Of a stretch of 32,000 nucleotides of DNA, positions 563 through 29,277 are shown piece by piece. Made by a program: the position numbers and the translations under genes. The stretch's first letter is position 1; each line of letters begins with the position of its first letter. The notes beneath the pieces were generated by a model that saw only the letters and a list, made by a program, of their open reading frames with translations, was not told the DNA's origin and ran no database searches. This DNA is from Candidatus Fokinia solitaria (GTDB lineage: Bacteria > Pseudomonadota > Alphaproteobacteria > Rickettsiales > Midichloriaceae): NCBI RefSeq assembly GCF_003072485.1, contig NZ_CP025989.1, positions 210,001-242,000 of the forward strand, written 5' to 3'.

Positions 563-3181
563 ATGTATAAGATGTTCAATCGTTTGTTAAATCGCATTAT
601 ACGCGCTACTCTTGGTAAACATGTAGCGATGTTAAAGGCGCGCTTTATAGATCCGCTTATTAGTAATAGCGATAGAGACGATTTCATCCTTAGCTCTTCA
701 TCTTCAAAAAAGTCTTCCGTCAGCTTACCGAAGGAAATAGAAATACCCGTAGTATATGGACGATGTAGAATGCAGTGTCATGTGATTTGGGCTGATAAAG
801 TAGTTAGTATCAGAGATGAGGAGGATAGTAGTGGTTCATCGTACGTTTATGTAAAATCCTTTGCAGTAGGTATATGTAGAGGACCTATCTTTAATATCGG
901 CCACATACTAGTTAACGGACAAAATATTGGTATTCAAAAAAATATAAGAATTAGAGTATACTACGGCACAGAAGACCAAACGGTAGATCCGCTGATAGCG
1001 ATGAGATTGCAGCACCTTTCTACACCTTATAAAGGGCTAGCTTATATTGTTATTCAAAACTTTCCAGCGTCTGACTATAGCCCCTCGATTAAAGTAGAAG
1101 CAGAAATCTCCGGTATATATGACGCAGAATACAGAAGGCGATATGCAATGGATGCTATAAATCTGATCGGTAATGGAGAATTTACATATGATACATTATC
1201 AAACACTCGATACCTTGAATGTCCCGAAGGAGCAGGTACTTGTCAGAGAAGAGATTATTTTCAGATAAATGAATATCATACTGCAGGATCAGCAGATGTA
1301 ATAGTATCTCTTCACGAGCTAAAACGTGCTATGCCAGGCATTAGATGGGTTTGTGTTACAGTATATTGGTTTGCTACTACATATGACATAAAGGATGCAG
1401 ATATAAGACCAGGAGTAGAATTCAGAGGTGATCATACTGCTACTAATCCAGTCACGTGGGTAGTATCTAAGTATACAAGAGATACTGCTGAGCTTATAAA
1501 AAAAGATGCAAATGGTAAATTAATATATACCGGTACAGCAGGTACTATATGCGTTGACAGAATAGTATCAACTTTGAAACAGAGAGGATATAAAGTTATG
1601 CTAAAGCCGATTTTGTTAGTGAATAGAGAAGATAAACCATGGAGTGGAAAGATGGTATGTAATGCATCTGATGTGAGTAATTTTTTTAATAAAGAGGAGG
1701 GTTACAATAACTTTATTACTCATTATGCGAGAGTGCATAGTGGCTTGCTCGACGCCTTTCTTATAGGTTCAGAGCTTGTAAGTCTTACATCATGTCGAGA
1801 TAATGATGGAAATTTTGTCGCAATAAAAGAGCTAAAAAAACTTGCAGATATAGTAAGGGTACTGATACCAGGTAATGTTATGGTGTCGTATGCAGCGCAT
1901 TGGTTAGAATATCATCATACTGATGGTGGATGGTATAATTTAGATCCATTGTGGAGCGACCCAAATATACACTTTATTGGTATAAATAATTACATGCCTC
2001 TGACGGAAGATACAACATCTAGCTATGACATAGAGTATCTTATAAAGTGTTTTGATAGTGGAGAGGGGTACGATTATTTTTACGAATATACAGATTCTGG
2101 TAAAAAAAAGCGTCCTCTTGCGGAAAAATACGCGTGGAAGAATATTGAATGGTGGTGGAGTAATTTGCATTATAATCCCGATGGCGCTGTAACTTCGTGG
2201 ATTCCGGAAAGTAAGAAAATTTGGTTTACGGAATATGGTTTTCCATCGGTGCATTTAGCTACCAACAAGCCAAGTGCATTTTTGCCTTCTGATGAGACTT
2301 CATCTCTTCCAATACACTCTAACGGTAAGTTGGATTTCCGAATGCAAAAAGTTGCTATTTGCGCAATGGAAAAAAGATGGCAGGATTCGAAATGCGTTCA
2401 ACGGAAGTTTTTACAATCCTGGGATGCTAGGCCTTATCCTACTTGGCCTGAGAGGCTTGATGCGTGGAATGATACTGAGATGTGGGAGAAAGGGCATGAT
2501 GTGCAAGGAAAGTTCGATACGTGTTATCTTGCTATAATTATTGAAGATTTGTGTGAGAGAGCGCAGATACCTAAGGACAAAGTAGTAACTTCCGAACTCA
2601 TCGACAAAACAGATGGATTTTTCATCTTACAGAATTCGACGTGCGAAGAGATAATTCAGCAATTGAAGGAAATATTTTTATTCGATATCGTCGAAGATGA
2701 CGGTAAGATACACTTTATTTCTCGTAAAAATGGGAAAAAAGTACCAATACCAGTAGAGCATATTTTACGAGGTGGAGGTAGTTTTAAAGCATCTAAGATA
2801 TGTGAATTTAATGAGATACAGAGGTATGCAATTTCGTTTATTAATACTACATTTACATATGATAAAGACATCATGCAGTATAACAGCGAAAGTAAGACAA
2901 GATCTTTAAGTCTCTTATATGAAGCGAATCTTGTGATAAATCGTGTATGTGGAAAACATCTATTAAAAAAGATAGTAGAGAATTCATTTGCGTACTTAAG
3001 GCAGTATGAGATTTGTATGGGGTTATCACTACATATTATGCCATCCGATATACTGATTGTGAAGATTGGCGGAGGTGAGGTATCACTGAGAGTTATTATG
3101 GCAGTAAGGTATGAACATCACTTATATCTGTTTTGTTATGAAGAAAATATTGTTAAGAATCTTCCCTTTGATGAAGAATAA
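563..3181 (+). CDS. Gene-transfer-agent ORFg15-type protein (GTA TIM-barrel-like glycoside-hydrolase domain plus phage-tail-like domain), shortened version
   Basis: 872-aa ORF. Motif series I recognise from RcGTA g15-type proteins: PVVYGRCR..VIWA, RVYYGTEDQTVDPLI, YKGLAYIVIQNFP, INLIGNGEFTYDT, IRPGVEF, FLIGSELVSLT, SYAAHWLEYHH, LDPLWSDPNIHFIGINNYMPL, WWWSNLHYNP, IWFTEYGFPSV, WDARPYPTWP..WEKGH. A tail-protein-like stretch follows (DGFFILQNSTCEEIIQQLKEIFLFDIVEDDGKIHFISR). An in-frame stop at 521-523 prevents a longer N-terminus. Confidence 0.8.
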   Translation: MYKMFNRLLNRIIRATLGKHVAMLKARFIDPLISNSDRDDFILSSSSSKKSSVSLPKEIEIPVVYGRCRMQCHVIWADKVVSIRDEEDSSGSSYVYVKSFAVGICRGPIFNIGHILVNGQNIGIQKNIRIRVYYGTEDQTVDPLIAMRLQHLSTPYKGLAYIVIQNFPASDYSPSIKVEAEISGIYDAEYRRRYAMDAINLIGNGEFTYDTLSNTRYLECPEGAGTCQRRDYFQINEYHTAGSADVIVSLHELKRAMPGIRWVCVTVYWFATTYDIKDADIRPGVEFRGDHTATNPVTWVVSKYTRDTAELIKKDANGKLIYTGTAGTICVDRIVSTLKQRGYKVMLKPILLVNREDKPWSGKMVCNASDVSNFFNKEEGYNNFITHYARVHSGLLDAFLIGSELVSLTSCRDNDGNFVAIKELKKLADIVRVLIPGNVMVSYAAHWLEYHHTDGGWYNLDPLWSDPNIHFIGINNYMPLTEDTTSSYDIEYLIKCFDSGEGYDYFYEYTDSGKKKRPLAEKYAWKNIEWWWSNLHYNPDGAVTSWIPESKKIWFTEYGFPSVHLATNKPSAFLPSDETSSLPIHSNGKLDFRMQKVAICAMEKRWQDSKCVQRKFLQSWDARPYPTWPERLDAWNDTEMWEKGHDVQGKFDTCYLAIIIEDLCERAQIPKDKVVTSELIDKTDGFFILQNSTCEEIIQQLKEIFLFDIVEDDGKIHFISRKNGKKVPIPVEHILRGGGSFKASKICEFNEIQRYAISFINTTFTYDKDIMQYNSESKTRSLSLLYEANLVINRVCGKHLLKKIVENSFAYLRQYEICMGLSLHIMPSDILIVKIGGGEVSLRVIMAVRYEHHLYLFCYEENIVKNLPFDEE

Positions 3182-3193
3182 TACTTCTTCATC
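3170..3193 (+). terminator. Weak hairpin spanning the stop codon of the g15-like gene (possible leaky terminator or attenuator)
   Basis: GATGAAGAA (3170-3178) / loop TAATAC / TTCTTCATC (3185-3193): a perfect 9-bp stem followed by TTATT. The stem is AT-rich and the U-tract is short, so function is uncertain. Confidence 0.3.
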
Positions 3194-3282
3194 TTATTGG
3201 AAAAAGAAATATTCTGAATTATATATTTTAATCATATAAATATTATGTACAATCTTGATATACAAAGTGAAGTGCAGTTTGG

Positions 3283-6200
3283 ATGAAGTGCTATACGATA
3301 GCGTTTGTTATAGTACTGATTTTGCTATCGAGTGCAGTGCGTTGTGCGTATGCAGAGAATATTAATAAAGCACAAAGAAGCTGCGGAGATTTTAATGGAA
3401 TATACTTTGGTAACTGTAATAGCGATATATTGCCTCTTCATCTTCGTCGATTGACAGGTGGTACGATAGAGGTTACTTCTCCTGATCCGTTTGATGCTTC
3501 GTATCAATTATTGATTTACGAATGCGTTTCGTATAAATCGCCAATATCTCCTACTAAATGCGGCTTCGATGCTCTAAGAAGTAGGAAGACGATTACATTC
3601 AGCCCGTCTCAAGTAAATGATATTAGATCATATTCCGGAGGTTCATTATGTAAAAGTGGTATTTATTACAAAAAAGCAGGAGGTTTGGTTGCTTGTTTGT
3701 ACTCGTATCCTACAGATGGTTTTGATAGCTCTACATTAACATCAGATCAATCTGATGTGTACACTATATTACAGTCTTTCTCGCAAGTATGTGATGCTTC
3801 TACCCCGCTTGGATGTGTGTGTGGAATAGTAGAAGATCATTACCTTCAATTGCACAGTGTATTTCGCACAAAAAATGTAATTGGATGCGTACCAATGATC
3901 ATTCTTCCTCCACCTCCGACTTTTAATCAGATTCTTACTCCTCCAGTAACAATTTTCATTCCAGGACAATCGCCAAATAGTACTTTTGATATGCCTACAG
4001 TACAAGTCCAGTCTTCTCCTGCAAATTCAAATTCTTCTGGCTCAACGATAACATTGCAATATTCTTTCAGCGCAAAAACTCAAACTTGTCAATCTCTACC
4101 ATCTATAATGGGCTCATTTTGTCCATCTATTTCTAGTGATGGTAGCGAAATATGCGTTACTCAGAATTTCTCCAATGGTTGGCCTTCAAATTCGCTAGGT
4201 TGTATACCGCGTCCTAGTATCAGCCAAAGTTCGAACATAGTAATTATACCATACTATGATTATAGCAATACCACTGCGCAGTCAGTTGGAGTTGCGATAC
4301 TACAATCTACAAATGGTCCGATTACGCCAATTTCTGGATTAGTACCAATAGGGTATGATAGTAATGGCGATGTATTATCTCTTGATTCGAATTATAATTT
4401 AGTTGCTACGCCAACCGATAGTACGCAATCTCAGCCTGCAAAATGTAGTCTTGGGACAAATCTTAATCCAAAATTTCCTCTTCCAGCATGTACATTATCC
4501 AGCGGCTATAAGGTATATGGCGCAACTCTTCTTGAAAGTGACAGTGCATCGTCTACAAATAATATAACGGAGTATGTTATTGCTTCTAAGCAGTATGATG
4601 CTGTTAAAACGACGACCGTGTATGAGAAGAAAGGTACTCCTACTATAAAACGATACTATAGTTATACTCAACCTATCGTAGCATTTGAGAATTATGCAAA
4701 TGAGATAGCTACTAACATTTATAATCTGAACATTAAAGCGTTGATTTTAAGTAGTAATGCACAACAGCAGTATATATATCTTACTTCATCAGATGGCGAG
4801 TGTGGTAGAAATTGCGAAATATTTGATACTTTTGACGATAGCAAAGCATCTGCGAAGATCTCAGCATTTGAGTCTAAGGTACAAACGGCGTTAAGCGAAA
4901 TAAAACCAAAAGTAGTGTTTTATGCACAAGAGATAAAACTTGATATAAAAAATAATCCTCAAATCATTACGAGTTCTGAAGTGGAAAAACTCACAAAACT
5001 CTTAGATTCTACAGATCGTGCGAAAGCTAAGGATAATTTTAATAAAGTGAAAAATATCTTAGAAAGTAAGATGTGTCCGCCTAGACATTGTTGGAATTGT
5101 TCATCTTGGAAAGTTGATAACACGGCATCTGATGCGATACCATTTTACATACCTGGTGGCTGGATGAGTAGAAGAGCGGAATATTGCTATTGTGGAGATG
5201 GAAAGAATGAATGTCCTATGGTTGATAACCAAGAGTTACTTGCTCTTGCACAAAGTAATCAGAGTGGAATCGAAAATTTAGAAAGTGAATACAAGCATGA
5301 TAAGAGTAATGCGCAAAATAAAATGATGGAAAATATTTCATCGGATGCGCAGGCGATAGTATCAGAGGATAACTATTGTTCTTGCGCGTTGTGTATGAGA
5401 AATACTACTCAAGAGAAGGCAGATCTGCAAAGTCTTTATAATAAGTACGAGCAACATCTACCTTCGATAAGTGAAATACGTTCTTATTTCAATAAGAATC
5501 AAGGAAATTCTGAAGTGAGTGCGCAAATCTTCATTGATAGAGCTGCTTGTCCAGGTCTTTATAACGGTCCTAATGATCGACATACAAGCATTCCGGATAA
5601 AATGTGCATAATGAGTTCCGGTAATGGATGGGATTTTATATCAGGGAATAATTCGCAAAGTGATGCGGCAAATACTGTTGCATTATTACCTCCTCAGCCT
5701 GTATGTGTCAGTCTTCCGCAGCAATGTACGGTGCCAAGTACAGTTGCAAACGCTACAATACAAAAAGTTATGCCGTTTCCAGTAGAGTTTTATAATGCGG
5801 ATGATCAGCAAGTGAGTGTTGCACAGTTAAAACAAACATCTACATCTTCTTCCAGTAGTGAATCCTCTACTAGTACGACAACACTCCCTTTAAGTGTCAA
5901 TGTAAATACGATGGTTGGTGTTCAGTGTAGCGATGGATATAGTGCAGCGCCTGGTGCTGCTACTTACAGTTTGATTTTACCACCTTTACCTTGCAATAAC
6001 GATACAGCAAGTGCGTCTACTAGTACCACTCAAACAGCGTCATCCACTACAGGCACCGCAACAGATGCTACAACAAGTAGTAATACGATAATAAATGCAT
6101 CATCCATTACCATTCAAACAACAAGTCCTACATCTTCATCAGATATGACAAGTAGTATTACTGTTACAAATACGTCTTCTACTACGTCGACTCTCCCGAT

Positions 6201-8826
6201 CCTTATGCAACAAACTTGTGCTGTGACGGCAGGCTATATAAATGATACCACTGTTGTTCTCACAGCAAATCAAGGCTGCACTTTTTTCCCTAGTAACAAT
6301 GGGGAAGTAACAACGATATACTACTACACAGATTCAACAGGTCAATGTGATACTTGTAGCAGTACCACACCAACTATAAGAGTGGCGTTTTATAGTGATT
6401 TAGTTGTAACTAGTAGTTGCACTGATAGCGGTAGAACATATTATGTTGATATAGCGCCTATCTCTTCGATATATTATAACAATTACGTTTTAGGATTAGC
6501 GTTGCAGCCTCTACCACAGGTCAATATAGTAGACGGTACTGTAATCTTTGCTGGTGGTACTTCATCGCTCTTCTATTCTACATCTTATTCAAGTGTTGTA
6601 GATCAAATCCGAAACAATATGGATCAGTATGGCAATACGTATCAATACGTATTGCCTTGTGATTCGCAGGGGATACTGCCTGGTTACTTTATGCTGTCTT
6701 CTGATTCATATCTTCAGGTGGAAATATCTCAGAGTTTTCAGAATCAGATAACGCAGTATGCTACAAGTAATGCTGGTACTCCACCTTCAGGAGAGCTTAC
6801 TTTTACGTTGTATGGTACAGTAGCAGATACAAATATTGCCAATCTCTCGTCATATATACCTGCTTGGGTAGCAGATCCTACTTGGCCTGCACTTACGGTA
6901 AGCAGCAGTGGTGATCAAATCAGTTCATCTCTTACTGTATCTTCTCCTATCAGTCAAGAAGCTATACCATCTTCTCCAATTCCTCTTATTATGCAGTCTA
7001 CTTGTAACATGACTCAGAATCGCGAGACAATTTCTGTACAAAATTGCGGAGCGTTTCTCAGTAATTCAAATGATTCAAGTACTATTATCTTCGAATATGT
7101 CAATTTCTCGCAAATAGATGGCACCGTACCTGAACTGCGTATAGGGGATAATAATACTGGCACTAATAGTATGCTATCCTTAGTTAATGATACCTCTTTC
7201 TCAGTCTCTGCTCTAAACAATGTAAATGATAGTAACACTACGGTAGCATTTTTATCAGAGTCATTCACTTGGAATGGAAATTCTTACGCTATTGTAATGG
7301 TACCGAGTGCTAGATTTACATTAAAAGAAATAACTTCAACTTCAGCAATATTTGGTGGAGGAGTTTCTGTTGGTGTTATGAATGAAGATGGATATATATA
7401 TGCTACGTATTCTCCACTCAATGCTTGTTTTAGTGATGATTCTGGATGTTTACCGTTCATAGCTCTTTGCGATGGTGTACCATGTGTGACGTTTTCTTCT
7501 GATACTTATTTAGCAATAGAAATGCCGTTAAGTCTTACAAGTAGTTTAGAGAATCAAGATTATACTGGTTCTGGCTCGGTTACCTTTAGTTTGTATGGCG
7601 CTATTAATAGTACTAATATTCCAAATCTTTCATCAATATTACTAGGTAAAGCGAGTAATCTTCCAACACCTACATCTACCACTACTCAAATAAGTACAGC
7701 AGCACAGACATCATCTACTGCTGCAGCTCCTCCGCTTATTATGGAATCTACATGTAATAATGATACAACTCCGTTTGATTATATTGATGGTTATTTTAAC
7801 TTTGGTCAAAGTTGGACAGCGTTTTTCAGTGAGATTGGAGGTATTACCGGTGTAAATATTGATTACTTACCTCCAACATATACTGGTGATTCGATGCCAA
7901 TGCTTACTCTACTTGCTAATGGTACGGTTTTTACTAATTGCAGTGGACAGGTAATTGGTTCGGGTGCTGCAGTCTTTTTGTCTAAGTCATTTTGTTTTGG
8001 AGGAAGTTGTGGATACTACATCATTATGGTACCTAATACTAATATTGTACAAACGAGTACTACATCAAATTCGGCAATATTTACAGGCACAGTTTCTATA
8101 GGTATAGTATCGTATAGTACTTTCTTAGATGGACGTACTATCAACACTTGCGCAACTGATAACACTTTATTCAATAGTTGCGATACGCTTGGATCTTCGT
8201 GCTCGCCATTAACGCCATGCTATAATGGTGGTCCGTATGTAACGTTATCTTCTGACGCGTACTTTCAAGTAGAGATGCCATTAGGTTTAGTTGAAAGCTT
8301 GAATACGTCTACGTCGTCTAGCACTATAAGTCCTTCAGGTACAACTATATTTAGTTTATATGGTACGATAAATACCAATATTCCGAATCTTGCCTCGATA
8401 CTACTTGGTACTGTCAGTAATGCTTCATCAGTAATGTCCAGTACCACTACATCGACACCAGCGTCCAGTACTACTACATCAACGGCGAGTACTACTACAT
8501 CAACGGCGAGTACTACTCAAGCATCAACATCCAATACCGGAAAATGCGATAGTAGTACTGCCGCAGAAAATGCAAAGCGTGAAGGAGCAGTGAAAGAGTT
8601 TCAAGAGCTTGTATCAAAAGCTAAATCAGAAGGGAGAAATGTCGTTATAAGTGATATAGAAAATACACAATATTTAAAGAATTTCAAAAATTATATAAAA
8701 TGTACAGGCGCTGAAATGAAATGCATTGGAGGTATGTTTTATAGTCAAGATGTATGCGTAAAGACCAGCGATCTTCCTACTAATGATTTTTGCATTGCGC
8801 ATACAGTACCGAGTAGTACAGATTAA
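3283..8826 (+). CDS. Giant secreted/surface protein of unrecognised family, rich in Cys and Ser/Thr (1847 aa)
   Basis: Single uninterrupted ORF. Sec-type signal peptide MKCYTIAFVIVLILLSSAVRCAYA/EN. Dozens of Cys spread over the whole length. Pure Ser/Thr tracts and many N-x-S/T triplets. Lys/Glu-rich central segment. Three tandem ~255-aa modules in the C-terminal half. No TM anchor, lipobox, LPXTG, RTX repeats or C-terminal beta-barrel signature seen. Confidence 0.85.
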   Translation: MKCYTIAFVIVLILLSSAVRCAYAENINKAQRSCGDFNGIYFGNCNSDILPLHLRRLTGGTIEVTSPDPFDASYQLLIYECVSYKSPISPTKCGFDALRSRKTITFSPSQVNDIRSYSGGSLCKSGIYYKKAGGLVACLYSYPTDGFDSSTLTSDQSDVYTILQSFSQVCDASTPLGCVCGIVEDHYLQLHSVFRTKNVIGCVPMIILPPPPTFNQILTPPVTIFIPGQSPNSTFDMPTVQVQSSPANSNSSGSTITLQYSFSAKTQTCQSLPSIMGSFCPSISSDGSEICVTQNFSNGWPSNSLGCIPRPSISQSSNIVIIPYYDYSNTTAQSVGVAILQSTNGPITPISGLVPIGYDSNGDVLSLDSNYNLVATPTDSTQSQPAKCSLGTNLNPKFPLPACTLSSGYKVYGATLLESDSASSTNNITEYVIASKQYDAVKTTTVYEKKGTPTIKRYYSYTQPIVAFENYANEIATNIYNLNIKALILSSNAQQQYIYLTSSDGECGRNCEIFDTFDDSKASAKISAFESKVQTALSEIKPKVVFYAQEIKLDIKNNPQIITSSEVEKLTKLLDSTDRAKAKDNFNKVKNILESKMCPPRHCWNCSSWKVDNTASDAIPFYIPGGWMSRRAEYCYCGDGKNECPMVDNQELLALAQSNQSGIENLESEYKHDKSNAQNKMMENISSDAQAIVSEDNYCSCALCMRNTTQEKADLQSLYNKYEQHLPSISEIRSYFNKNQGNSEVSAQIFIDRAACPGLYNGPNDRHTSIPDKMCIMSSGNGWDFISGNNSQSDAANTVALLPPQPVCVSLPQQCTVPSTVANATIQKVMPFPVEFYNADDQQVSVAQLKQTSTSSSSSESSTSTTTLPLSVNVNTMVGVQCSDGYSAAPGAATYSLILPPLPCNNDTASASTSTTQTASSTTGTATDATTSSNTIINASSITIQTTSPTSSSDMTSSITVTNTSSTTSTLPILMQQTCAVTAGYINDTTVVLTANQGCTFFPSNNGEVTTIYYYTDSTGQCDTCSSTTPTIRVAFYSDLVVTSSCTDSGRTYYVDIAPISSIYYNNYVLGLALQPLPQVNIVDGTVIFAGGTSSLFYSTSYSSVVDQIRNNMDQYGNTYQYVLPCDSQGILPGYFMLSSDSYLQVEISQSFQNQITQYATSNAGTPPSGELTFTLYGTVADTNIANLSSYIPAWVADPTWPALTVSSSGDQISSSLTVSSPISQEAIPSSPIPLIMQSTCNMTQNRETISVQNCGAFLSNSNDSSTIIFEYVNFSQIDGTVPELRIGDNNTGTNSMLSLVNDTSFSVSALNNVNDSNTTVAFLSESFTWNGNSYAIVMVPSARFTLKEITSTSAIFGGGVSVGVMNEDGYIYATYSPLNACFSDDSGCLPFIALCDGVPCVTFSSDTYLAIEMPLSLTSSLENQDYTGSGSVTFSLYGAINSTNIPNLSSILLGKASNLPTPTSTTTQISTAAQTSSTAAAPPLIMESTCNNDTTPFDYIDGYFNFGQSWTAFFSEIGGITGVNIDYLPPTYTGDSMPMLTLLANGTVFTNCSGQVIGSGAAVFLSKSFCFGGSCGYYIIMVPNTNIVQTSTTSNSAIFTGTVSIGIVSYSTFLDGRTINTCATDNTLFNSCDTLGSSCSPLTPCYNGGPYVTLSSDAYFQVEMPLGLVESLNTSTSSSTISPSGTTIFSLYGTINTNIPNLASILLGTVSNASSVMSSTTTSTPASSTTTSTASTTTSTASTTQASTSNTGKCDSSTAAENAKREGAVKEFQELVSKAKSEGRNVVISDIENTQYLKNFKNYIKCTGAEMKCIGGMFYSQDVCVKTSDLPTNDFCIAHTVPSSTD
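6196..8409 (+). repeat. Three diverged tandem protein modules (~250-262 aa each) inside the giant gene
   Basis: Each module opens with P(I/L)(L/I)M(Q/E)(Q/S)TC (nt 6196, 6982, 7732). Each closes with (T/S)F(T/S)LYG(T/A)..NI(A/P)NL(S/A)S (around nt 6796, 7579, 8344). Shared internal blocks: SSD(S/T/A)Y(L/F)(Q/A)(V/I)E(I/M), and AFLSESF..YAIVMVP..TSAIFGGGVSVG versus VFLSKSF..YYIIMVP..NSAIFTGTVSIG. Similarity is at protein level; DNA is only moderately similar. Confidence 0.8.
8440..8518 (+). repeat. In-frame 21-nt tandem repeat encoding STTTSTA
   Basis: AGTACTACTACATCAACGGCG occurs exactly twice (8467-8487, 8488-8508). It is flanked by a degenerate 27-nt copy (8440-8466) and a partial copy (8509-~8518). 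Confidence 0.85.
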
Positions 8827-10383: not shown

Positions 10384-13300
10384 TCAAAATATTTTATCTC
10401 TGAAATTAAAAGTAAATTTAGGTCGATAATCTTTTCTGTGTATGACTGTAGTTATTGGAAGAAGAAGTATATCTATGAAAGTTTTAAGCATCATCTTTCC
10501 TTTAAATTCTATCTCATTTCTCTGTATATTAGCGTTTCCTTCTCCAATGATTGTGAACATATCACTTTCTATATTGCATCCGATCAAAGATATCTCATTC
10601 GCATTCAGTGCAGTAATATAGCACTTACTGTTCTGTATCCCAATTTGCTGCTGCATGGTGATAATCTTAACAATATTTATCATGCTAGGATATAAAGATA
10701 AAACGCGCAAAGCTGTATTTATCAATTTATTGTTATGGATATCGAGATTCGACACCTGTAGTACATTTTCATCTATGTATTGACTTTGTCCAATTGTTTT
10801 AAAATTTACATCAAGTATCACGTTACCTTTTTTAAATTGTTTAAGGCTAGGAACTTTTTTCACCAATGATGTAACATTTTGTAGACGGATTGATAATTTA
10901 TCATTTGCATAAGCAATTTCGTAACGTCCGGTATTGCCAGTGCTGTTTGTGAGACATGTAAATTTTGTATCTTTGTCATTATTGCCGCGAATGTAGCGCA
11001 GCATAGTATTGTAAAGTTCGATCCTTTCGCCAAGTAATATATTCTCTATATCAAGTAATACTGACATGGTGCGATTGTCTTTTTTACTGCTACGTAAGTT
11101 TAAAAGATCTGTAATAGTCAATCCTGAGAGATTAAGAGTGTTCTGTTTGACATCAATAGATATATTATCCTTACTCTTCTTTATTATCGTTTTTTCTTCC
11201 TTTGAAGTAGCATATGCGGGAGTGATGACAAAGATTTTCTCATCATCTTTATCTTCGATAGCGATGGTGCCATCATACGAAATTGCAGAACTATTTACTA
11301 AGAATTTATAAATACCGTTTAAATTATGCGTTACAATGCTAACATTAGCGATATTTACTGGATTATTGCTTCTATATATCGAAGCGTATTGGCATTTTAT
11401 ACTAGCTGATTTAAGTGCTATTTGATCGTCTATGCTTAGCGCAATTAAAGTGTTGAGTTTATTTCGTGGTACAATTTTTACGTCTTCAAAATACACTGGA
11501 CTATAAATCGACGAAAGAACGACAATTTCGTTCATGCCATTCGATTTTGTGAGTGGCATTTGCTTTACTGCTAGATCTTTTTTCTTAGCGAGTGCTTGTA
11601 CTTTTTCTTTGTATTCGGAAAAGCCAATATTGTTGTTCTTTCTTATTTTTTTTGCGTTTATCTCATAGTTAAGGAAAGCTTGATGTACGTCTTTCGCATT
11701 ACGAAATTCACCATACGCTTGAATGACATTTTCATGCCAAGAAAGTAGTACATTATCGAATTTAACGTTTAATCCTAATAACTGACGTATTTGGTGCGTA
11801 TACGAGGTCTCTTTTAACGATACATTATTTGCGTGTCCGTTTATTTTAAAAACAGGATTGTTGTCTTTTTTAAAAAGATCAAATTTTAGATTCATTAGAA
11901 ATGTTCCTCTCGTATTTTGCACATCAAAGTTATCGTCGATTATATCGATAATGCGTTCTACGGATTTTTGAGTGAAAAATGTCTTTATGACGTCTAAGTA
12001 CGAAATTATTTTACCTTCGGTGTAATACGTAATATCAGCAAAGTTATTGTCGGTACCGAACGTGATATCAGCTTGTCCACTTGATATATATAGCGGATTG
12101 CTTTTTGGCAATTTATGTTTCTCCAGTATTTTAGAGAAATCTGCATATGCGTTTTTAGCGTCTAAATGCACATTTGTTTCTTTATTGGAAAATTCTCCGC
12201 TGACAGCTACATTTTTTCCAAAGATTACTGGAAATTGTAGTGATAGTGGAGCGAATTTGGAATTAAGCGTATTTGCTTTCCACGAGAAATGCTTTACTTC
12301 ATCTTCTGCATATAAAAGTGTAAGTTCACTACCTTCTACTATGCTATCGAAAAATACATTTTCTTGTATAAATTTCTTTGTATTTTTCCCAAATTTCTGA
12401 GGCCAGTATGTGAAAAAGTCATTTCTTGAGATTGGAGAAGTATTTTTTATGGAGCAATTCAGTTGTGGTATTTTATGTTGATATTGTAAATTAAATTTAG
12501 CTGTTACTCCATTATCTGTAGAGATATTGCCATTATTGATATTGAGAGTCTTATTTTGTACGTCGAAATAACCGTGACCAGTAATGATGTCCAACGTTTG
12601 GCTATTATGAGAGAGGATATTTTTTATATATGCGTCGTGAAAATTAAATGATATTTCGAAAAGATGAAGAGCATTTTGATTGATGGAAATTTTGTACTCA
12701 GTTTCGAGAGGAGTGTGTTCTTTGGATAGCGCATATTTTGCGAGAGTGACGTTTATTGCGCTACTTACGTATTTACTGTTATTAAGTTGAGGTTCAATAA
12801 GCGCATTAAGTTTTGCTACATATTGCTGGGCATTATTAATAACTGTACCAACACTCTCTATATCGTATTTTTGATTACTTTTCTTTATGCTTAAAATGAA
12901 TTTTTCGAGGAATACTTGCTTATTTGTCTCGTACTGTAAGGTGATATTTTGCAACTCTATCTTTTGAGGCATTAACTCGAGTGATTTAGAAAGTATTTTG
13001 AAATTACTGTACTTGGAATCAGTAGTTTGTATGTATTGACTCAGTATAGGGAGAGTTTCCTTATCAAGCTTGCAGTCTGACATTGATATGGAATCAATCT
13101 TAAAAAATGACCATGGTAAAAGTGAGAGCGATACTTTTGTATTTGGCAATGTGTATTGAAAATGTGAAGTCGCTTTATCTGCGATAAAAGCAGCGCATTG
13201 AACTTCAACAGAAAATGGTAGATTTTTAAATCTAAGATCTACGTTTTGCAGTATTAGTTCTTTATCATGAGGTAACTTTGTGTATTTTGTTACAATGCTT

Positions 13301-13437
13301 TGTATTAATAGTTTTTGATGCTGTGTAAGTCGAATGTGTAGTAATGTGAGAAGCGATGTGAAAAGTACCATTAATAGCAATGCTATTGCGATACTCTTTA
13401 CTAGAATCCATATGTGATACGCAAAAGTTCTTCTCAT
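10384..13437 (-). CDS. Large inner-membrane-anchored AsmA-family (YhdP/DUF3971-like) protein
   Basis: 1017 aa with one N-terminal TM helix (WILVKSIAIALLLMVLFTSLLTLL) and a long Asn/Lys-rich, beta-looking body. The assignment rests on architecture and a weak C-terminal resemblance, not on strong motifs. A 12-nt gap to rsmG suggests co-transcription. Confidence 0.45.
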   Translation of the reverse strand: MRRTFAYHIWILVKSIAIALLLMVLFTSLLTLLHIRLTQHQKLLIQSIVTKYTKLPHDKELILQNVDLRFKNLPFSVEVQCAAFIADKATSHFQYTLPNTKVSLSLLPWSFFKIDSISMSDCKLDKETLPILSQYIQTTDSKYSNFKILSKSLELMPQKIELQNITLQYETNKQVFLEKFILSIKKSNQKYDIESVGTVINNAQQYVAKLNALIEPQLNNSKYVSSAINVTLAKYALSKEHTPLETEYKISINQNALHLFEISFNFHDAYIKNILSHNSQTLDIITGHGYFDVQNKTLNINNGNISTDNGVTAKFNLQYQHKIPQLNCSIKNTSPISRNDFFTYWPQKFGKNTKKFIQENVFFDSIVEGSELTLLYAEDEVKHFSWKANTLNSKFAPLSLQFPVIFGKNVAVSGEFSNKETNVHLDAKNAYADFSKILEKHKLPKSNPLYISSGQADITFGTDNNFADITYYTEGKIISYLDVIKTFFTQKSVERIIDIIDDNFDVQNTRGTFLMNLKFDLFKKDNNPVFKINGHANNVSLKETSYTHQIRQLLGLNVKFDNVLLSWHENVIQAYGEFRNAKDVHQAFLNYEINAKKIRKNNNIGFSEYKEKVQALAKKKDLAVKQMPLTKSNGMNEIVVLSSIYSPVYFEDVKIVPRNKLNTLIALSIDDQIALKSASIKCQYASIYRSNNPVNIANVSIVTHNLNGIYKFLVNSSAISYDGTIAIEDKDDEKIFVITPAYATSKEEKTIIKKSKDNISIDVKQNTLNLSGLTITDLLNLRSSKKDNRTMSVLLDIENILLGERIELYNTMLRYIRGNNDKDTKFTCLTNSTGNTGRYEIAYANDKLSIRLQNVTSLVKKVPSLKQFKKGNVILDVNFKTIGQSQYIDENVLQVSNLDIHNNKLINTALRVLSLYPSMINIVKIITMQQQIGIQNSKCYITALNANEISLIGCNIESDMFTIIGEGNANIQRNEIEFKGKMMLKTFIDILLLPITTVIHRKDYRPKFTFNFRDKIF

Positions 13438-28617: not shown

Positions 28618-29277
28618 TTACTTGAGATTGCCTTTCTTATTCGTATCACTACCAATAATGATATAGCTTGTAATTTCATTAACAGCCATACGCAACTCAT
28701 CACTTAAATGAAAGGAGCTGATTAGCTTTGAAGATGTAGCGAGTACATTTTCACCATCATTGTGCGCAGTATATAGAGACATTTTCATCATGTCTTGCAG
28801 TATGTGATATACCGAGACGTTATGCGTTATCACAGTGTCGTCATTCTTTGCAATACCACTTCTCAAGCGTAATGAATACGCGAGAAATCTGTTATACTCT
28901 GTGATACCTTCATCAATTTTTAAGTCAGCAATTTTTTGACATTTTACAATTGCTTTTACCGGTTCATAATTTCTTAATATTAATCCTAATTTATAGTTTT
29001 CATACAGTCCAATGTATGCATCGGTCTTATATTGCATATTTTTCCGCTGTAAATCATCTTCGGATGGATTTTCATACAGCATATCAGTGAAGAGAACAGC
29101 GTCAGCTTTGGCGTCACGCGTCTTCTTATAATCATAGAATTGCTTTACACCTATGAAAACAGCAATACATATGAATCCTAATGAAATCACTATACTGGCA
29201 AGTTTCATCACTCTCTGCCACCTTTCTGATATTTCTTCTGCGAGAATATCATCGAATACATCCAGATTTTTGTTCAC
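28618..29277 (-). CDS. YfgM-like single-pass membrane protein with TPR-like C-terminal domain (Rickettsiales DUF-type)
   Basis: 219 aa. Acidic N-terminus, one TM helix (LASIVISLGFICIAVFIGV), then a helical repeat-like domain. This is the same layout as YfgM/UPF0070-type proteins. No strong motif, so the family call is tentative. Confidence 0.4.
   Translation of the reverse strand: MNKNLDVFDDILAEEISERWQRVMKLASIVISLGFICIAVFIGVKQFYDYKKTRDAKADAVLFTDMLYENPSEDDLQRKNMQYKTDAYIGLYENYKLGLILRNYEPVKAIVKCQKIADLKIDEGITEYNRFLAYSLRLRSGIAKNDDTVITHNVSVYHILQDMMKMSLYTAHNDGENVLATSSKLISSFHLSDELRMAVNEITSYIIIGSDTNKKGNLK

Follow-up and report, generated by a model that had tools for sequence, protein, structure and literature searches.

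Fsol_00208 of "Candidatus Fokinia solitaria", an exported cysteine-rich protein with undescribed relatives in the Rickettsiales

In a 32,000-nucleotide (nt) stretch of the "Candidatus Fokinia solitaria" genome (the window, numbered from its first nucleotide), the open reading frame (ORF) at 3283-8826 encodes Fsol_00208, which by its sequence is an expanded Fokinia member of an undescribed Rickettsiales family of Cys-rich exported proteins. The source organism is an obligate cytoplasmic endosymbiont of Paramecium (Midichloriaceae, Rickettsiales), and the ORF product is 100% identical to the NCBI entry 'hypothetical protein Fsol_00208'. An earlier reading of the window from its letters alone (the sequence-only reading) had described a secreted, Cys- and Ser/Thr-rich protein of no recognisable family with a eukaryote-like, mucin-like architecture. 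Its observations were largely correct and its interpretation partly right, and it overlooked three tandem beta repeats and a set of distant homologues. Fsol_00208 belongs to a new family that is probably associated with the rvh type IV secretion system (T4SS), and it is no eukaryote-like oddity, the case for its function being one of gene linkage.

An exported Cys-rich family

Searches with the whole protein and with eight segments of it, at E values up to 10, returned nothing credible from Pfam, NCBIfam or PHROGs; the best PHROG match was no better than E = 0.03, and none of the three databases gave a match to an autotransporter, RTX, LPXTG or other known adhesin profile. Word-index searches gave the F. 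crypta orthologue as the sole homologue among the matches listed for full Fsol_00208, and only F. crypta among the matches listed for the family profile. As Ser/Thr tracts probably swamp word-based searches, a profile of the two Fokinia proteins (residues 25-860) was used in an exhaustive HMMER search of 1.84 billion representative proteins. This yielded 17 further proteins of ~600-1012 amino acids (aa) and one 242-aa fragment, with E values from 4e-28 to 6e-4. The earlier statement that the protein has no family therefore stands for named families, none of which matches, and falls for the unnamed one that the exhaustive search revealed. None of the 18 family members carries a Pfam domain (E <= 0.1), none is named, and we found no mention of the family in the literature.

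Fsol_00208 resembles the family profile across the conserved core and shares its motifs, as seen in the alignment and in reciprocal BLAST, and the family hidden Markov model matches the window ORF at E = 1.4e-158. The shared motifs are CxxWxxxxxxCN, DPFxxxY, IGCVPxPxxPPPxFN, STF[DE]xP and LGC[IV]PRP, followed by [VA]CPGxYxG, PDKIC, WDFI[SG]G, CxxxPxxC, GxCxxGY and a C-terminal CIGGxY...C. Although sequence identity is only 20-26%, 15 or more of the 21 family sequences retain the Cys in nineteen of the Cys columns of the Fokinia proteins, and Fsol_00208 has these ~19 conserved positions together with a signal peptide and no other transmembrane (TM) segment. The N-termini of full-length members show a hydrophobic stretch that resembles a signal peptide (in three of them it lies under the hydropathy threshold), and these members contain 25-45 Cys; other TM-like segments are essentially absent from the family, two members having one weak internal hydrophobic stretch. 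Fsol_00208 consists of the ~750-aa family core plus lineage-specific additions, namely Lys/Glu-rich segments and a block of ~850 aa.

Export is indicated by a Sec-type signal peptide, MKCYTIAFVIVLILLSSAVRCAYA/EN, with a Lys in its n-region, a hydrophobic core with a Kyte-Doolittle value of 2.15 and an A-x-A ahead of the proposed cut, in agreement with the sequence-only reading. This N-terminus is conserved in F. crypta after the start of the latter is moved 15 nt upstream. The F. crypta orthologue was probably called five codons short, an in-frame ATG being present 15 nt upstream (L001 8926-8940), and the corrected start MKCYIMAF... matches MKCYTIAF... of F. solitaria and puts the Lys back in the n-region of the signal peptide. 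A hydropathy scan of Fsol_00208 found no TM-like segment besides the N-terminal one, and the C-terminal beta-barrel translocator PF03797 has no match in the protein, whose last 94 aa are a helix followed by CIGGxY..C. A lipoprotein reading was rejected, as the Cys residues near the cleavage site (AVRC, DLAC) are unfit for a lipobox. The other features that had been reported missing (TM anchor, autotransporter barrel, RTX and LPXTG) are also missing by hydropathy and by the Pfam, NCBIfam and PHROGs searches.

The composition is as unusual as had been claimed. Cys residues occur throughout the protein, including the motifs that had been singled out, and their 60 copies amount to 3.2% of residues against 1.36% in the window's other 16 ORFs (P = 2e-9). 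Ser and Thr together reach 25.4% against 13.1% in the same ORFs, and the pure Ser/Thr tracts named earlier lie at residues 852-867 and 1728-1745. The abundance of N-x-S/T triplets, by contrast with what had been said of it, is at chance level, with 30 observed and 30.7 expected from composition.

Named genome records carrying the family number three in a motif scan, all of them Midichloriaceae metagenome-assembled genomes (MAGs); the motif-restricted scans found three genome loci and two metagenome loci, and the taxonomic range of the family is under-sampled. Two of the family members (L007 and L009) come from MAGs titled 'Candidatus Fokinia solitaria'. The two proteins share only 50% identity, neither ranks with the nearest relatives of the genuine F. 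solitaria protein, the gene order in L007 differs, and both MAGs seem to have been given far too narrow a species label.

Linkage to VirB4 in relatives

In seven of 14 informative genomic contexts, a sample that includes both Fokinia genomes, the family gene lies directly downstream of a VirB4 homologue on the same strand (L002, L007, L008, L010, L011, L012 and L015). The linked VirB4 proteins match PF03135, with or without PF27097. The distance between the two genes is -4 nt in L002, +10 in L007, +1 in L008, +9 in L010, -7 in L011 and -8 in L012, and in L015 the genes abut. Among the linked contexts, the flanking genes make up four or more different sets and the proteins fall into three subfamilies with a mutual identity of only 20-30%; P0003, the nearest non-Fokinia relative of Fsol_00208, is one of the linked members. 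As the overlap or abutment persists across diverged lineages, the adjacency is hard to explain without selection for co-expression, and the family gene is probably translationally coupled to a divergent VirB4 paralogue.

The rvh T4SS has 'no VirB5 analog' as one of its hallmarks, and it includes RvhB4-II, a conserved and fast-evolving VirB4 paralogue of unknown role that has defective ATPase sites and is encoded apart from other rvh loci; the role of the Rvh-II paralogues in general is an open question (PMC4676284, PMC11077975). The VirB4 proteins linked to the Cys-rich family are mutually divergent (22-60% identity), and Walker A is degenerate in four of the six examined. Co-encoding of the family gene with a divergent rvh VirB4 paralogue, mostly with a dead Walker A, is likely to be the ancestral arrangement. 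Walker A is intact in the VirB4 proteins of L011 (575-2842, GPVGSGKT) and L012 (3702-6008, GPSNTGKS), and either RvhB4-II is still active there or the family gene is linked to another VirB4 copy. No VirB3 or VirB6 match was obtained among the called neighbours of the linked VirB4 genes.

Neither Fokinia species has a divergent VirB4 directly ahead of the family gene: in the window and in F. crypta alike, a gene resembling the 'megatron' gene of gene transfer agents (GTAs) takes that place. T4SS genes for VirB9/CagX, VirB10/TrbI and a second CagX-like protein do occur 4-9 kb upstream of the F. crypta orthologue (L001 23-2053 and 4083-4874), a proximity that may be due to chance (roughly estimated at ~10%) in a genome of ~0.8 Mb with several rvh islets; the corresponding part of the F. 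solitaria genome is beyond the window.

Architecture, orthologue and locus

The features of the gene, all on the forward strand, are as follows.

3182..3282, +: upstream intergenic region of 101 nt, the likely site of a promoter for this gene (by-eye comparison with F. crypta)
3283..8826, +: complete ORF of Fsol_00208, 1847 aa plus stop (ORF call and translation)
3283..3354, +: Sec-type signal peptide, residues 1-24, cut before EN (hydrophobic segment and A-x-A read from the sequence)
3355..4524, +: conserved N-terminal beta-rich core, residues 25-414 (profile matches, alignment, AlphaFold2 model)
4525..5997, +: central region, residues 415-905, conserved Cys motifs interleaved with Fokinia-specific inserts (family alignment)
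5998..6198, +: Ser/Thr-rich linker, residues 906-972, start of the Fokinia-specific insertion of ~850 aa (47% Ser plus Thr at 901-1000)
6199..6882, +: repeat R1, residues 973-1200, ILMQQTC ... FTLYG..TNIANLSS (no F. crypta counterpart)
6979..7662, +: repeat R2, residues 1233-1460, LIMQSTC ... FSLYG..TNIPNLSS (self-comparison)
7732..8427, +: repeat R3, residues 1484-1715, LIMESTC ... FSLYG..TNIPNLAS, modelled as all-beta (self-comparison, AlphaFold2)
8428..8541, +: last Ser/Thr linker, residues 1716-1753, holding a 21-nt tandem repeat (composition and repeat scan)
8542..8823, +: C-terminal domain, residues 1754-1847, a helical stretch and then KCIGGMFYSQDVC (homologous to the C-terminus of shorter family members)

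The core carries the motifs CxxF/WxxxxxxCN, DPFxxSY, IGCVPxxxLPPPPTFN (200-216), STFDxP (233-238) and LGCIPRP (305-311), and P0003 was aligned across positions 5-495 in the profile search. An AlphaFold2 (AF2) model from an 18-sequence alignment reached moderate confidence only at residues 25-414, where it consists mainly of strands with a predicted local distance difference test score (pLDDT) of ~75. It gave no credible fold match in the PDB, and the family profile has no sequence relative there. The central region contributes further conserved Cys motifs (C606, C635, C704, VCPGxYxGP at 755-763, PDKxCIMS at 771-778, WDFISG at 783-788, C808 and GxC882xxGY), between which lie inserts that are gaps in the 16 non-Fokinia members of the alignment. 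These inserts are rich in Lys and Glu (~500-760) and probably helical. The helical middle part proposed by the sequence-only reading is thus predicted by AF2 as well, at a pLDDT below 50, and in the family alignment it is made up of stretches that only Fokinia has, set between the conserved Cys motifs.

The C-terminal half contains the three tandem repeats, R1-R3, of ~230-250 aa each, which are parted by Ser/Thr-rich linkers. R2 matches R3 at E = 8e-25 and R1 matches R2 at E = 1e-9, and each copy opens with [IL][IL]M[QE]xTC and closes with F[ST]LYG..TNIxNL[SA]S. With a five-copy alignment, AF2 modelled R3 as an all-beta domain (predicted template modelling score 0.77, mean pLDDT 70), for which Foldseek found no match in the PDB or BFVD and no PDB sequence match was obtained; the structure search of separate segments that had been proposed has thus left both the core and the R3 models without a fold match. 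A word-index search with the repeat profile gave no matches, the parent proteins themselves being missed likewise. Derivation of the repeats by duplication of the core domain was rejected, as hhalign of repeats against family core showed no relation.

The repeats and linkers form the ~850-aa block (~906-1753) that sits between the GxC882xxGY module and the C-terminal domain. Both this insertion and the Ser/Thr tracts are absent from the non-Fokinia members of the alignment, and a survey of relatives such as had been proposed accordingly finds distant homologues, while the Ser/Thr tracts and beta repeats are limited to Fokinia. The tracts are short linkers of at most ~70 aa between folded domains and evolve fastest of all (28-43% identity to F. 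crypta). The sole nucleotide tandem repeat is a perfect, in-frame one of 21 nt at 8467-8517 (+), with 2.4 copies (AGTACTACTACATCAACGGCG) that encode STTTSTA units; it looks recently expanded and could change length by slippage. Within the R1 coding sequence, the terminator scan picked up an inverted repeat with an 11-bp stem (GGCAATACGTATCAATACGTATTGCC; 6631-6656, +) that is not followed by a proper T-run.

A small Cys-containing C-terminal domain had been noted correctly. It is 63% identical to its F. crypta counterpart, with a ratio of non-synonymous to synonymous substitution rates (dN/dS) of ~0.23, and its CIGGxY...C motif (KCIGGxY in Fsol_00208) is found at the C-terminus of most family members, C1825 being conserved in 20/21 and C1837 in 17/21 family sequences. 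The C-terminus of member P0008 (L005 8001-11039) carries three tandem copies of the ~60-aa C-terminal module, C...GWAxW...GxCxxGY...CxGGxYTNFRxAC, which is therefore an independently duplicating four-Cys unit. The module's spacing, C...GxCxxGY...CxxGxY...C, is superficially similar by eye to that of Sushi/CCP domains (PF00084); the assignment was rejected, as no family member has a Pfam Sushi match.

The F. crypta orthologue is 1588 aa long as called and 1593 aa with the corrected start, and it has two repeat copies against three in F. solitaria. At 50% overall identity between the two proteins, 50 of 54 aligned Cys residues are conserved (P = 2e-11). By the Nei-Gojobori method, dN/dS is ~0.25 for residues 25-520 and the C-terminal domain, ~0.3 for the middle region and ~0.5 for the repeats and linkers, compared with 0.05 for radA and 0.30 for the adjacent GTA-like gene. 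As the ORF is uninterrupted in F. solitaria, intact in both species and under purifying selection, Fsol_00208 is functional and neither a pseudogene nor an assembly artefact, the possibility that had been raised against it.

The gene looks native to its genome, as its GC content and its GC content at third codon positions (GC3) are those of the neighbouring genes. Both Fokinia species share the order folD(-), GTA-TIM gene(+), Fsol_00208 or its orthologue(+), radA(-), an orphan of ~1020 aa(-), rsmG, mlaE, lysS and leuS. Blocks common to the two species are visible by eye in the intergenic region 3182..3282, for example ACAATCTTGATATA ... TTTGGATGAAGTGCTAT, and a promoter likely lies within it. 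A promoter scan gave weak sigma-70-like matches only (3153-3182 and 3198-3227), which were not above chance, and neither was the outcome of a terminator scan.

Immediately upstream, the GTA 'megatron'-like gene at 563-3181 (+) encodes 872 aa that match the GTA TIM-barrel domain (GTA_TIM, PF13547) at E = 1.6e-53 and NCBIfam GTA_megatron at E = 3.7e-163 (profile positions 23-951 of 1299), with 545 bits against a curated cut-off of 800. It is a solitary GTA baseplate-like gene to which no other GTA genes are adjacent, and it is kept in F. crypta at 53% identity. A second large orphan, at 10384-13437 (-), encodes 1017 aa with an N-terminal TM helix, is Lys/Asn-rich with 0.7% Cys and has no Pfam, NCBIfam or PHROG match. 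Its F. crypta counterpart is syntenic (1020 aa, 61% identity, dN/dS ~0.15), and its layout, an N-terminal anchor and a long soluble part, recalls that of AsmA/TamB-like envelope proteins, in layout only. A 219-aa ORF at 28618-29277 (-), between acrB-like and TLC ATP/ADP translocase genes, has no Pfam match.

Possible roles and comparison with known systems

The reading that we favour, tentatively, is that Fsol_00208 serves the rvh T4SS as an accessory or adhesin outside the cytoplasm and is stabilised by disulfides, a proposal whose functional side comes from gene linkage. The family protein would be exported by Sec and oxidised in the periplasm, where roughly 9-10 conserved core disulfides could form; the dense conserved Cys pattern implies folding in an oxidising compartment, whether the periplasm or the outside of the cell. 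It would then act as an extracytoplasmic T4SS accessory, the most plausible form being an adhesin or tip-like component that spans the periplasm or is exposed at the surface, a role for which rvh, having no VirB5 analogue, has no recognised protein. In Fokinia, the gene would have moved from virB4 to its place behind the GTA 'megatron'-like gene, and the protein would have doubled in size by lineage-specific inserts, which comprise Lys/Glu-rich helical segments and a Ser/Thr stalk of ~850 aa with three beta domains (two in F. crypta). Such a stalk would hold the C-terminal domain at a distance from the cell surface or from the remainder of the protein and so extend its reach.

Several observations weigh against this proposal. 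Adjacency is the sole functional evidence, searches of Pfam and the PDB revealed nothing that resembles a T4SS component in sequence or structure, and the AF2 models of the core and R3 are moderately confident only. The other seven of the 14 contexts, both Fokinia genomes included, have no VirB4 in the sampled flanks, so the linkage is dispensable and extends to Fokinia by homology only. The RvhB4-II label for the linked VirB4 is not proven, since two of six keep Walker A. It is moreover not evident how VirB4, an ATPase of the cytoplasm or inner membrane, would be the direct partner of a protein in the periplasm or at the surface, and no route across the outer membrane was identified for Fsol_00208. 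Finally, Fokinia lies naked in the host cytoplasm, which is reducing (PMC4701390); as such surroundings are odd for a disulfide-dependent surface protein, the periplasm may be a likelier location than full surface exposure.

The VirB4-free contexts also favour the main alternative, which we consider less likely, namely that the protein is a disulfide cross-linked structural protein of the periplasm or outer membrane, or a general adhesin, that works independently of the T4SS and is comparable in role to chlamydial OmcB, its VirB4 adjacency being inherited gene order. The neighbours in these contexts include mlaC, mlaE/F, lpxB, ppdK and rsmE, with the GTA 'megatron'-like gene in Fokinia. Several unlinked copies are found by envelope genes (L005 and L004 have MlaC or MlaE/F upstream in divergent orientation, LpxB follows immediately in L013, and MlaE is 5 kb off in the window), and many conserved Cys would suit a cross-linked structural role. 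Inherited order, however, fits poorly with overlap or abutment of the VirB4 and family genes that persists despite 20-30% protein identity and differing flanks, and Pfam gave no similarity to OmcB or to known envelope families. The T4SS linkage, combined with a signal peptide and conserved Cys, would also fit a substrate released in two steps, as pertussis toxin is across the outer membrane by the Ptl system: Sec export, folding and oxidation in the periplasm, then release into the host by the rvh T4SS. The long, fast-evolving Fokinia inserts and the change in repeat number would suit a host-facing molecule. We nevertheless give this a slim chance, as the linkage is to the ATPase-dead VirB4 paralogue rather than to the copy competent for secretion, host cytosol would destabilise a protein so rich in disulfides, and no toxin or enzyme domain was detected with Pfam. 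Known rvh effectors are, in addition, thought to be drawn from the cytoplasm (PMC11077975).

A partnership with the upstream gene is suggested by the locus itself. Fsol_00208 could be a tail-fibre-like or receptor-binding partner of the GTA 'megatron'-like protein in a remnant GTA or phage tail module: in both Fokinia species the genes lie side by side on one strand, ~100 nt apart, the upstream protein has the GTA_TIM and GTA_megatron matches given above, and fibres often contain modular beta repeats on linkers. This is very unlikely, since phage and GTA structural proteins are not known to be Sec-exported while Fsol_00208 has a signal peptide, no other family member in the sampled contexts has an adjoining GTA gene, and neither the PHROG search nor BFVD gave a credible match. 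Least credible, and largely refuted, is a eukaryote-like, mucin-mimicking effector acquired from the host, toward which the sequence-only reading had leaned. Ser/Thr-rich tracts and many Cys do make for a superficially mucin-like composition. The host-mimicking framing nevertheless fails on the chance-level sequons and on the tracts, which behave as fast-evolving inter-domain linkers in a Fokinia-specific insertion, and the eukaryote-like label fails on the native GC and GC3, on the homologues found, all of them bacterial and devoid of Ser/Thr tracts, and on the absence of any eukaryotic domain match in Pfam.

The proposal that Fsol_00208 is a candidate surface or host-contact protein has fared better: an exported, Cys-rich protein of no curated family is a good candidate, and the VirB4 neighbourhood in seven of 14 contexts gives a more specific lead, a T4SS accessory, than the earlier 'adhesin, invasion factor or effector'. 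The rvh T4SS is the central host-interaction machine of Rickettsiales, and it has long presented two puzzles, the lack of a VirB5-type surface component and the conservation of an ATPase-dead RvhB4-II of unknown function (PMC4676284, PMC11077975). An exported Cys-rich protein whose gene overlaps the end of a virB4 paralogue is a concrete candidate partner. In a bolder form of the T4SS reading, which as a whole is unlikely, the family would be the missing extracytoplasmic partner of the Rvh-II set (RvhB4-II, RvhB8-II and RvhB9-II), with which it would build a second, non-translocating surface structure. Functionally, this would resemble the adhesive Trw pili of Bartonella, with a non-homologous Cys-rich protein in the VirB5/TraN adhesin role, and in Fokinia a stalk would have lengthened this protein as an adaptation to life in the Paramecium cortex. 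As Fsol_00208 takes up 0.66% of the 837-kb genome, is under purifying selection and has three repeats against two in F. crypta, it is a prime candidate for contact with that cortex. To sequence space it adds an unannotated protein family and a novel beta domain of ~230 aa.

Comparison with known systems sets the family apart from several superficially similar proteins. Eukaryotic mucins differ in that the sequons of Fsol_00208 are not enriched and no arrays of Pro/Thr/Ser repeats form its bulk. Chlamydial OmcB and OmcA, thought to be disulfide cross-linked in the envelope, are likewise large and rich in Cys and are exported by a bacterium that is obligately intracellular, but Pfam searches showed no homology to them, they belong to another phylum and they have no known T4SS linkage in Chlamydia. 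The Sca autotransporters of rickettsiae are very large, modular, repeat-containing, exported host-contact candidates as well; Sca proteins are not known to be Cys-rich, and Fsol_00208 has neither their C-terminal beta-barrel nor a passenger-domain match.

The closest likenesses are to T4SS components. TraN (PF06986), the mating-pair stabilisation protein of F-type conjugative T4SSs, is Sec-exported, several hundred residues long, rich in conserved Cys and encoded with T4SS genes, and it too combines a conserved scaffold with a variable insert that faces the partner cell and lacks a TM anchor or autotransporter barrel. However, PF06986 matched neither the segments of Fsol_00208 (E <= 10) nor the 18 family members (E <= 0.1), the linked gene is a P-type VirB4 (PF03135, PF27097) and not F-type TraC, and no F-type tra genes (TraC, TraU, TraW, TraH or TraF) occur near the family, whose neighbours are P-type VirB4 or housekeeping genes. 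VirB5/TrbJ/CagL proteins (PF07996), the minor pilins or tip adhesins of P-type T4SSs, are also Sec-exported and extracytoplasmic, and canonical virB operons place VirB5 right after virB4, the very position of the family gene in seven of 14 contexts, if not in Fokinia. VirB5 proteins are helical, Cys-poor and ~220 aa long, whereas the family has 750-1850 aa, a beta-rich N-terminal half and 25-64 Cys, Fsol_00208 being eight times larger than VirB5, and it has no match to PF07996, to a PDB sequence or to a known fold. The rvh system is without a VirB5 analogue (PMC11077975). By analogy, we infer that the family may play a role like that of VirB5 or of the Cys-rich TraN while being homologous to neither.

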